DNA of 64,000 bases, taken from NCBI GenBank assembly GCA_951406725.2, contig OX597814.1, positions 86,180,001 through 86,244,000 on the forward strand. The letters are read 5' to 3'. Origin of the DNA: Octopus vulgaris (lineage: Eukaryota). Each line of letters opens with the position of its first letter. Position 1 is the first letter of the stretch. Below the pieces are notes generated by a model, which made no database searches, was not told the DNA's origin, and worked only from the letters and a program-made list of their open reading frames with translations. Below, piece after piece: positions 15,366 through 21,613 of this stretch. The position numbers and the translations under genes are program-made.

Positions 15366-16007
15366 CTCAAAGTCATTAAAGAAAAATTGTAATGTAGAGC
15401 TGAATTTATACGATAATAAAATTTTCTTTTTATAATTTTTCATACCTCCTGCCTAATTCTAAAAGTTCCACTCTTTTACCGATTTCGATTTTTTTTTTAA
15501 ATCAGAGTTTAAAATACTGAGAGTTCGAACTTTTTGCTTAAATCCCACCCTTGGGTGTATCATCAATCATTTAATGGTCCTTACAGGGAGAAGAATATTG
15601 AAAAATATCAAAACGTGTCAGAATGACAAAGAAACGTGGAAGGTATCGGCTGATCGTGAGATGTGCTAAACATAACAGCTAAATCGCCCTTCATTCCTTC
15701 ACACAAACCATTTTTGTGCATAATAGTATGAATTTCCGTATGTGGAACACAAATTCGCAAAAATGTTTTGAAAATTCCAAAAAATAACAAAGTTGTGAGG
15801 GTACAGTTCTATATTTAAGAGATGAGGAATTATGTACATTATTTTTACATTATTTACATTATTCACATTTGACAGATATTTGTCCTCATTTTGTTTGTTG
15901 TTAACACAACTTTTCGGTCGTTATACTCTCCAGCCTTCAACAGGTGCCTTGGGGAAATTTCGAACCTGGATTTTCATTCCTCAGGTATTTTTTCGATATT
16001 ATTATTA

Positions 16008-16062
<55 letters not shown>

Positions 16063-16063
<1 letters not shown>

Positions 16064-16597
16064 GAGTGAGAGAGCAGTGCATGCCATCAAAGTGACACTG
16101 GGGTAAAATATACGAAGCCCAATATACCCATCATGACTACCCGTCTGATAAGGGTACACCAGGCACATGCATCACAACCATATGTGCGCGACATGGTGAT
16201 CTCATATCAAGATAAACAGCACATGACCTTGCAGGTGGGGCCCAGTTAGAATTTTCTTCAGGTTGAGTAGCCCATCCCGCTCAAAAGGTCCCTGAATAAG
16301 GGTTGTTTAAGGATGTTGAAAGAACCACCCATGTTTCCAGAGGTGAATTATTCAAACCCCAAAGAATCCCTCTCAACACATGGCTATGATGCTCCCCCAC
16401 TACTTCTGCTTGTGATCAGAGATGCACATATCGTCAGCCACTAAGGGACATGCTCAACTGGTTAAGGTCAAACAACTGACAAGCAAATCTGTGGTATTGA
16501 GCAGAATATTTGCTGTAGCCCATCTTTTATACCAAGACAAAACAATGTACATGATAACACTTCCAATCAGTTAAGAACAGAAGCCATGAGAGCCACT
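16063..16597. mobile_element. Non-coding insertion within an (ATT)n tract, probably the 3' UTR of a microsatellite-targeting LINE
   Basis: About 535 bp of complex sequence with (ATT)n on both sides; it has no counterpart in the mirror arm of the fold-back element. Confidence 0.5.
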
Positions 16598-16606
16598 TTA
16601 TTATTA

Positions 16607-16669
<63 letters not shown>

Positions 16670-16797
16670 TCACTGCTTGGGATCGAACTTGGAATCTTGG
16701 GGGTTAATAACCTGCGCTCTTAAGCACTATGCCCACGGGCATATGGCGTAGTGGTTAAAACCCCAATATTCCGAGTTCAATTCCAGGCAGTGATCTC

Positions 16798-16849
<52 letters not shown>

Positions 16850-16895
16850 TCGAAAATATACCTAAGGAATGAGAACCCAGGTTCGAAATTTCCCC

Positions 16896-16943
16896 AAGTT
16901 ACCTGAAGAAGGCTGGAGTGTATATCAGCCGAAACGTTGTGTT
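16896..16943 (+). ncRNA. Minimal type-I hammerhead ribozyme motif
   Basis: ac-CTGAAGA-a-GGCTG(gagtgtatat)CAGCC-GAAAC-GTT-gtgtt; core intact, helix I imperfect. Confidence 0.7.
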
Positions 16944-17211
16944 ATCAACAAACAAGATGAGGACAAATATCTGTCAAATGTAAATAATGTAAAGTTATGA
17001 GGGGTTAGTTATATGGGGTGCTTAAACCAGAAATCCGCTGTTTATTTAAGAATTATTCATAGTTGAATTGACACTACGGCCTCTTTTCAGTTATCACTCA
17101 ACTCTAAGACCTCATTACAAGCTTACGTCTATTCTGTAACTTTACCTCTACGTAAGAAAAAGTTTTCCAATTCTTTATTCTCTGATATTTTGTTCAATTA
17201 ATCATGTTGCA

Positions 17212-20913: not shown

Positions 20914-21613
20914 TTTTATTCTTTTTACATGTTTCAGTCATTAGACTGCAGTCATGCTGAGACACCGCTTTGAAAACTTGTAGTCTAAGAAATTGACCCC
21001 AGTTCTATATTTAAGAGATGAGGAATTATGTACATTATTTACATCCCGTTTAACCACTATGCCATATACCTGTGGGCATATGGCGTAGTGGTTAAGAGCG
21101 CGGGCTACTAACCCCAAGATTCCGAGTTCGAATAATAATAATAATAACACCGAAAAATACCTTAGGAATGAGAAACCAGGTTCGAAATTTCCCCAAGACA
21201 CCTGAAGAAGGCTGGAAGTTATATCAGCTGAAACGTGTTAACAACAAACAAGATGAGGATAAATATCCATCAAATGTAAATACTGTAAATAATGTAAATA
21301 AAATTGACCCCAGTTCTTTTTTTTAATTTTTTAAAGCCTGGTACTACTCTATCGGTCTCTTTTATTTGCCGAACTGCTAAGTTACGGGGGTGTAAACACA
21401 TCAACACCGGTTGTCAAGTGGTGGTGGGACACACAAACACACACACATATGCGACGAGCATTTTTCAGTTTCTATCTACCAAATCCACTCACAAGGCTTT
21501 GGTCAGCCCGAGGCTATAGTAGAAGGTACTTCATAAGGTGCCACGCGGTGGGACTGAACCCGGTACCATGTGGTTGGGAAGCAAGCTTCTTACCACACAG
21601 CCACGCCTGCGCC
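20911..21613 (-). mobile_element. SINE family A copy interrupted by the tRNA/hammerhead element
   Basis: SINE A tail 20911-21000, body and head 21301-21613. Confidence 0.75.
21001..21300. mobile_element. Second, internally deleted copy of the fold-back tRNA/hammerhead element
   Basis: Same left end (agttctatatttaagagatgagg), same central hairpin, tRNA head, (AAT)n and CTGAAGA...GAAAC module; TSD aaattgaccccagttct at 20990-21006 and 21301-21317. Confidence 0.8.

Follow-up and report, generated by a model that had tools for sequence, protein, structure and literature searches.

Paired terminal repeats of a decayed Penelope-like element carrying a tRNA-like head in the Octopus vulgaris genome

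Here we report that a fold-back locus in a 64,000-nt stretch of the Octopus vulgaris genome (contig OX597814.1; hereafter the window) is one insertion in which two decayed copies of a Penelope-like element (PLE) terminal repeat stand head to head. Each arm, consisting of a tRNA-like head, an (AAT)n tract, a hammerhead and a tail, is almost certainly, as judged by comparison with other copies, the terminal repeat (pLTR) of a decayed PLE encoding a reverse transcriptase (RT) and a GIY-YIG endonuclease. The explanation that we favor, and consider reasonably likely, is that such a pair arises from two short RNAs made by Pol III, one copied at each nick. Inverted pLTRs, target-site duplications (TSDs) of 8-10 bp, a one-sided tail, first codons lying within the pLTR, and junction palindromes have all been described in PLEs (PMC3846280, PMC8557442), so that the inverted arms, one-sided tail, TSDs and palindromic junction are published hallmarks of this group. 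The inverted dimer, which the preliminary description took for the form of a SINE possibly undescribed in cephalopods, is an insertion pattern known from PLEs and no new architecture. What appears to be new, in that we did not find it in print, is the promoter module within the pLTR, the open reading frame (ORF) devoid of T runs, and the signal of two templates; our literature search found no report of a tRNA-like promoter in a pLTR, of an autonomous retrotransposon transcribed by Pol III, or of twin priming by a PLE.

The fold-back locus and its parent element

The palindrome of the window is centred on GCCCACGGGC at position 16731. From there the left arm runs from 16734 to 15804 on the minus strand and the right arm from 16737 to approximately 16993 on the plus strand, the two being complementary at 91% over 196 nt (Table 1). 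The palindrome, the A and B boxes of the right arm, the (AAT)n tract, the CTGAAGA and GAAA-CGTT motifs and the 13-bp TSD with one mismatch had been noted from the sequence alone, and all of them were found in place. The left arm had been taken for a mirror image of the right one; it is indeed inverted with its long end at 15804, but a 534-bp insert had been overlooked and its A box is damaged. With the left (AAT)n tract interrupted by this insert, one arm is no simple mirror image of the other. Of the two hammerheads claimed, the right one has its motifs in place, the core and stem II are broken in the left one, and Rfam models score neither.

Table 1. Features of the fold-back locus (window positions)
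Feature	Position	Strand	Remarks
TSD, left copy	15789..15801	+	13 bp, one mismatch relative to right copy
Left arm body	15804..15996	-	5' UTR, PLE ORF start, hammerhead, long 3' end with PLE tail
Degenerate hammerhead, left arm	15903..15948	-	core and stem II mutated; N7 of the T lineage
Left-arm (AAT)n, 3' part	15997..16063	-	
Later insertion foreign to the PLE	16064..16597	-	5'-truncated copy of another abundant repeat
Left-arm (AAT)n, 5' part	16598..16665	-	
Left tRNA-like head	16666..16734	-	B box retained; 7 nt of A box deleted
Imperfect palindrome uniting the arms	16730..16741	.	12 nt; native to the 3'UTR/head border of the autonomous element
Right tRNA-like head	16737..16797	+	A box 16744-16754, B box 16773-16784
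Right-arm (AAT)n	16798..16849	+	
Right-arm PLE ORF start	16869..16993	+	41 codons, frame intact; short 3' end without tail
Minimal type I hammerhead, right arm	16898..16943	+	N7 of the A lineage; palindromic helix III
TSD, right copy	16991..17003	+	

The right-arm hammerhead comprises the CTGAAGA core (16903-16909), a 6-bp stem II, GAAA at 16931-16934 within GAAA-CGTT (16931-16938), a predicted cut after 16938, and a stem I of 3 pairs only; the head preceding it has a 14-nt deletion in the anticodon arm. In the left arm, the ORF starts with the ATG at 15977 and its frame is now broken by a stop. The two arms differ at 16 of 138 sites and belong to different lineages at hammerhead position N7 (T and A). 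Rfam searches gave no tRNA or hammerhead match at the locus at E<=5 or E<=10, and ARAGORN gave nothing credible for a tRNA, relaxed settings included; the tRNA-like heads and hammerheads were therefore identified by motifs and comparison. The repeat inserted at 16064-16597 is at least 550 bp long and also occurs at loci L003, L033, L057, L263 and L270. In 26/26 matches, duplicates included, its 3' end borders on (AAT)n, and it is frequent in the (AAT)n tract of the octopus PLE family; it may have an (AAT)n-targeting LINE partner.

The preliminary description proposed a link to Penelope elements and a search for an autonomous GIY-YIG element sharing the tail. Such an element was found, confirming the link, and it includes the head as well: the whole unit is contiguous within an autonomous RT and GIY-YIG element, rather than a SINE in its own right with only the tail in common. 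Endonuclease-like coding sequence runs into the tRNA-like head at two loci, and in 24 of 29 further endonuclease matches the head comes straight after the ORF, normally 23 nt past the stop. Among 20 RT loci, 14 have the order ORF, head and tail, and 10 have an upstream inverted arm. The protein is represented by a 569-aa open frame (L217), which matches RVT_1 weakly (E=2.7e-6, under the curated cut-off) and has 2,923 homologs at E<=1e-20, with an RVT_1 match in 28 of 29 aligned members. Across 101 aa, its C-terminus and the GIY-YIG region of P0121 are 35% identical (E=3e-17), with no GIY-YIG Pfam match on L217 itself. The ATG at window position 16869 starts a frame that continues through the hammerhead into the ORF in the natural copies L271, L282 and L286, so the hammerhead sits within the first codons of the ORF, and homolog P0006 (55% identical) has the same N-terminal motif. 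The short unit is about 270 nt long and ends inside the PLE ORF, and the central palindrome includes bases of the 3'UTR. The ORF-adjacent heads, the frame through the hammerhead and the native palindrome together identify each arm as a PLE pLTR. All RT copies examined were interrupted or partial and about 84-92% alike, and the family thus looks extinct.

The family has the features of endonuclease-bearing PLEs, namely RT, GIY-YIG, a pLTR extending over the first codons, a tail with TSD and a minimal hammerhead; the label Penelope/Poseidon-type is one that we assume from this anatomy and from known motifs. In common with SINEs, the unit has a tRNA-derived head with A and B boxes and is short, non-coding and apparently mobilised in trans, as the mixing of lineages suggests. 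It behaves like a SINE yet departs from SINEs, which are elements in their own right whose 3' end is LINE-derived or poly(A), in being contiguous with the PLE; nor does it form the head-to-tail tandem units of non-LTR retrozymes and SM-alpha. It is quite possible that repeat catalogues already list the family, as a SINE or as a Penelope element. Four internally deleted copies that keep both ends (L268, L281, L283, L291) are candidate non-autonomous derivatives.

Two other octopus families were considered as partners and rejected: the P0001 family, which is the commonest GIY-YIG family of the genome and has a 781-aa frame, and a P0002-like family have no terminal sequence in common with the unit in the loci compared (L071-L116, a set apart from the P0002-like flanks L147-L176). 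Searches for a head-less family of this type within the genome, as a control, for a solved PLE structure, and for relatives in viral contigs all came back empty. Several other PLEs were observed as well. Loci L101-L116 (e.g., L104:244-5460) hold a young family with many intact 781-aa RT and GIY-YIG frames, an overlapping upstream frame of ~480 aa, and direct repeats of 300-500 nt that are 99-100% identical; a pattern search found no hammerhead in it. Another PLE-like family (G000:C1:119516726-119524747 and L147-L176) is rich in intact frames of ~899 aa, which in some cases stand in tandem, 3.6 kb apart. PLE-like RTs, some with hammerheads, are also encoded by thirteen contigs binned into prokaryote genomes (L447-L459); these contigs are probably host DNA contamination.

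Copy number, pairing and lineages of the arms

The 2.8-Gb genome assembly (227 contigs) was searched for further members of the family. Sampling of 60 arbitrary 10-kb stretches gave 7 loci, which together had 10 arms; 3 of these loci were fold-back pairs and none of the 7 contained ORF sequence; extrapolation from these stretches gives ~33,000 insertions genome-wide (range 13,000-67,000). Short copies are thus more numerous than ORF-bearing ones. In a survey of 95 arm matches, combining the best matches with those of 40 arbitrary stretches, 70 formed 35 divergent pairs, so that the fold-back arrangement is common in the family, as had been claimed, and not unique to the locus. No true head-to-tail tandem neighbours were present among the 95 arm matches, same-strand neighbours being split matches. 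The 3' ends were long/short in 30 pairs, short/short in 5 and long/long in none, with one arm stopping at the distal site and its partner ~40 nt earlier. A flanking direct repeat (score of at least 9) was detected in 19 of the 30 long/short pairs versus 1.5% of 870 mismatched flank pairs. The TSD is therefore beyond chance and a pair is usually a single insertion event, which upholds the proposal of one insertion with a TSD. The TSDs are 10-16 bp long across the family. Arm junctions often lie at the native palindrome just 5' of the head, and 5' truncation can hit either arm; as both junctions and truncations vary between copies, a transposing palindromic master was rejected. The window itself holds another insertion of the family at 21000-21304, made of a 41-nt long arm, an inverted piece of head and a full short arm with a 10-bp TSD.

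At position N7 of the hammerhead, A and T are about equally frequent and show linkage with position 123 (26/30 versus 55/6), so that N7 marks source lineages. We compared the twin arms of 48 distinct pairs at this position; two with a third base were dropped and 46 were scored. In ORF-bearing pairs the arms were concordant in 18 of 19 and discordant in one, whereas in short pairs 16 of 27 were concordant and 11 discordant, with independence predicting 51% and 49%. The difference in discordance is significant (Fisher p=0.008), and would widen if L277 and L283, which were scored as short yet adjoin an ORF, were reassigned. Twin arms overall had slightly more variants in common than random arms, which suggests that some short pairs are single-source. 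Because self-priming is unable to mix arms, the discordant short arms indicate that two RNAs were copied, and we conclude, from one marker in 46 pairs with most short pairs picked by likeness to a window arm, that short fold-backs probably copy two separate RNAs. The short non-autonomous RNA postulated in the preliminary description is likewise probable, given the pair structure and the mixing of lineages.

The tRNA-like head and the hammerhead

When aligned to tRNAs of the host genome, the head scored best with tRNA-Arg (z 7.2-7.8), closely followed by tRNA-Thr (7.1); neither the tRNA covariance model nor ARAGORN gave a score for the head. Its A and B boxes are spaced by 45 nt, only about 12 nt separate the B box from (AAT)n, and the box pair is present in 14 of 29 decayed copies of the element itself versus none of 39 relatives. 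Copies L276 and L286 begin at the head. L275, L284 and L288 are partial tandems of near full length, demonstrating that read-through RNAs exist.

Over the sense strand of the element there are no TTTT (T4) sites common to its copies, versus 12-21 in two other PLE families of the genome; freedom from such runs is what a template of Pol III would require. Its 2,556 coding nt hold no inherited T4, where 5.4, 4.5 or 3.1 were expected (p=0.001, 0.009 and 0.037, the last using the element's own codons), in a post hoc test that constitutes moderate evidence. With T content matched, the chance of zero T4 is 0.004-0.016, the upper figure taking account of variation between relatives, and it rises to 0.11 when estimated most leniently. 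None of the 52 relatives of at least 1.5 kb lacked T4 altogether, one having just a single T4 in 2,346 nt; on single decayed copies the deficit was not significant. The homologs P0004 and P0006 (68% and 55% identical) are also phenylalanine-poor, at 2.2% versus 2.9-4.7% in ten others.

In three RNA-seq runs, possibly from a related species, read depth was about 1 : 2.5 : 4 over the ORF end, head and hammerhead, the ~2.5-fold rise from the 5' border of the head being one that may merely mirror copy number. Both directions were equally represented, fold-back joints were present where the head begins, and transcript starts or ends did not pile up; these runs neither demonstrate nor exclude Pol III transcription or cleavage. 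Judging by its sequence, we consider it fairly likely that Pol III makes short RNAs from the tRNA-like head, and possible but doubtful that it transcribes the full element. As a tentative scenario, an autonomous PLE may have given up its Pol II promoter in favor of a Pol III promoter captured from a tRNA-derived sequence, and purged T-run terminators over a ~2.9-kb RNA, each inserted end now being a source of SINE-like RNA and a dimeric enzyme integrating two at once.

The minimal hammerhead that had been claimed is supported by its palindromic helix III and by a core that is intact in 63 of 79 arms. Among genomic copies, core columns vary at 3.3% versus 4.6%; such copies decay neutrally and covariation among them is uninformative, hence relatives were used instead. 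The core motif follows the ORF in 19 of the 39 relatives with sufficient downstream DNA, and these have, in differing sequences, a stem II of at least 4 bp (17/19) and a stem I of at least 3 bp (18/19). Processing by the ribozyme found no support, because insertion ends lie ~55 and ~100 nt downstream of the predicted cut, away from where hammerhead-defined ends should be, and RNA reads do not pile up at any end; ends set by the hammerhead were rejected. Minimal hammerheads of this sort are known from PLEs, where their cleavage is weak and takes place in dimeric form (PMC4209133); one PLE could do without cleavage in vitro (PMC11167929). The dimeric hammerhead did not form in minimum-free-energy dimer folds. 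We regard the hammerhead as an inherited part of the pLTR that likely cleaves only as a dimer or when aided by protein.

Origin of the pairs and relation to known elements

In the mechanism that we propose, the A and B boxes would direct Pol III to begin transcription immediately 5' of the head, and any copy keeping head and tail would yield a short RNA with all cis signals. The PLE protein, probably dimeric, would nick both strands about 12 nt apart and prime reverse transcription internally on two RNAs, one per nick (twin priming), after which the palindrome or microhomologies would allow the two cDNAs to anneal. Insertions with an ORF would use one RNA or one source (cis preference) and short ones RNAs from a pool, in trans; the hammerhead would not set the insertion ends. 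In another PLE, both strands were reported to be cleaved and extended; two internal RT start sites, which account for the tail, and a predicted dimer were described as well (PMC11167929). The formation of inverted PLE ends has been called undefined (PMC8557442).

An unlikely but serious alternative is that the pairs are PLE insertions of the ordinary 5'-truncated kind, copied from long RNA of Pol II or read-through origin; the palindrome would bring about snap-back self-priming, and the head would be a captured SINE fragment that has no promoter role. Truncation, inverted pLTRs and junction palindromes are indeed standard for PLEs and self-priming has been proposed for them (PMC3846280), and an internal promoter without a TATA box is described for the Penelope of D. 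virilis (PMC2377424). In the octopus family, the partial tandems, the partly inverted head pieces that resemble snap-back at some junctions, and the first ~22 nt of the head, which are similar to other SINE-like heads of the genome, fit this reading too. However, snap-back should give identical arms, but 11 of the 27 short pairs differ at N7; the truncated arm can be either one; and the whole sense strand lacks T runs, whereas 16 of the 19 relatives have a T4 just upstream of the hammerhead.

An independent chimeric SINE, in which a tRNA head joined a borrowed PLE end (perhaps a described octopus SINE) and came to lie beside ORF copies secondarily, would explain why short copies prevail in arbitrary loci and why short pairs act as if mobilised in trans by the PLE. 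This account is improbable and largely refuted by the fixed site of the head behind the ORF, by the 3'UTR bases in the junction palindrome, and by the lack of a head-less family of the same type in the genome. Two independent insertions, or mixing of the arms after insertion by gene conversion or recombination, would fit the abundance of copies and the differing lineages of the window arms. We hold this to be highly improbable, since both arms lie within a single TSD, pairs point away from each other and combine a long with a short end instead of being randomly oriented, and conversion would have mixed the ORF-bearing pairs as well, yet these are nearly all concordant.

The octopus SINEs OK/OR1/OR2 of Ohshima and Okada 1994 are reportedly of tRNA-Arg origin. 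They possibly have the same tRNA-Arg-like head, and the short unit may be one of them. OR2 has been classed as a CORE SINE (PMC4758252), from which the octopus unit differs in the short distance between B box and (AAT)n.

As described in the available accounts, the family resembles Poseidon of Anolis (PMC11167929) and Pen2/Pen3 of Adineta (PMC3846280) in its RT followed by a C-terminal GIY-YIG, its pLTR over the first codons with the hammerhead overlapping the ORF start, its optional tail at one end, inverted 5' copy and TSD, and its palindrome at the inverted junction. Unlike these elements, which have TATA/Inr-like or TATA-less promoters, the octopus pLTR carries a tRNA-like A/B module and (AAT)n; its element lacks T4 runs on the sense strand, its TSDs are longer (10-16 versus 8-10 bp), and pLTR-only fold-backs form the bulk of its copies. 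Schistosoma SM-alpha is likewise a short repeat with a Pol III-type promoter 5' of a hammerhead, but in head-to-tail tandems freed by cleavage, whereas the octopus unit is head-to-head, retains a promoter per copy and is part of an autonomous PLE (PMC6765202). Animal non-LTR retrozymes are also non-autonomous, hammerhead-bearing and related to PLE pLTRs; they are defined as tandem arrays, and a tRNA-like promoter, fold-back or two-template insertion is not described in the portion of the report available (bioRxiv 10.64898/2026.07.22.740005). Helenus, Ajax and Cassandra also have a small-RNA-like sequence inside a terminal repeat, but are non-autonomous LTR elements, whereas here the module is borne by an autonomous PLE (PMC10886601).

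The lineage markers of twin arms provide a test that uses the genome only, and for short insertions they speak for two RNA templates and against self-priming. Should the long RNA be a Pol III product as well, the element would be a retrotransposon that encodes its protein on an uncapped Pol III transcript, and would offer a route for a SINE-like family to arise inside its own partner. Tens of thousands of apparent tRNA SINEs in the octopus are in practice ends of a PLE, and many of them are fold-backs that would yield double-stranded RNA.
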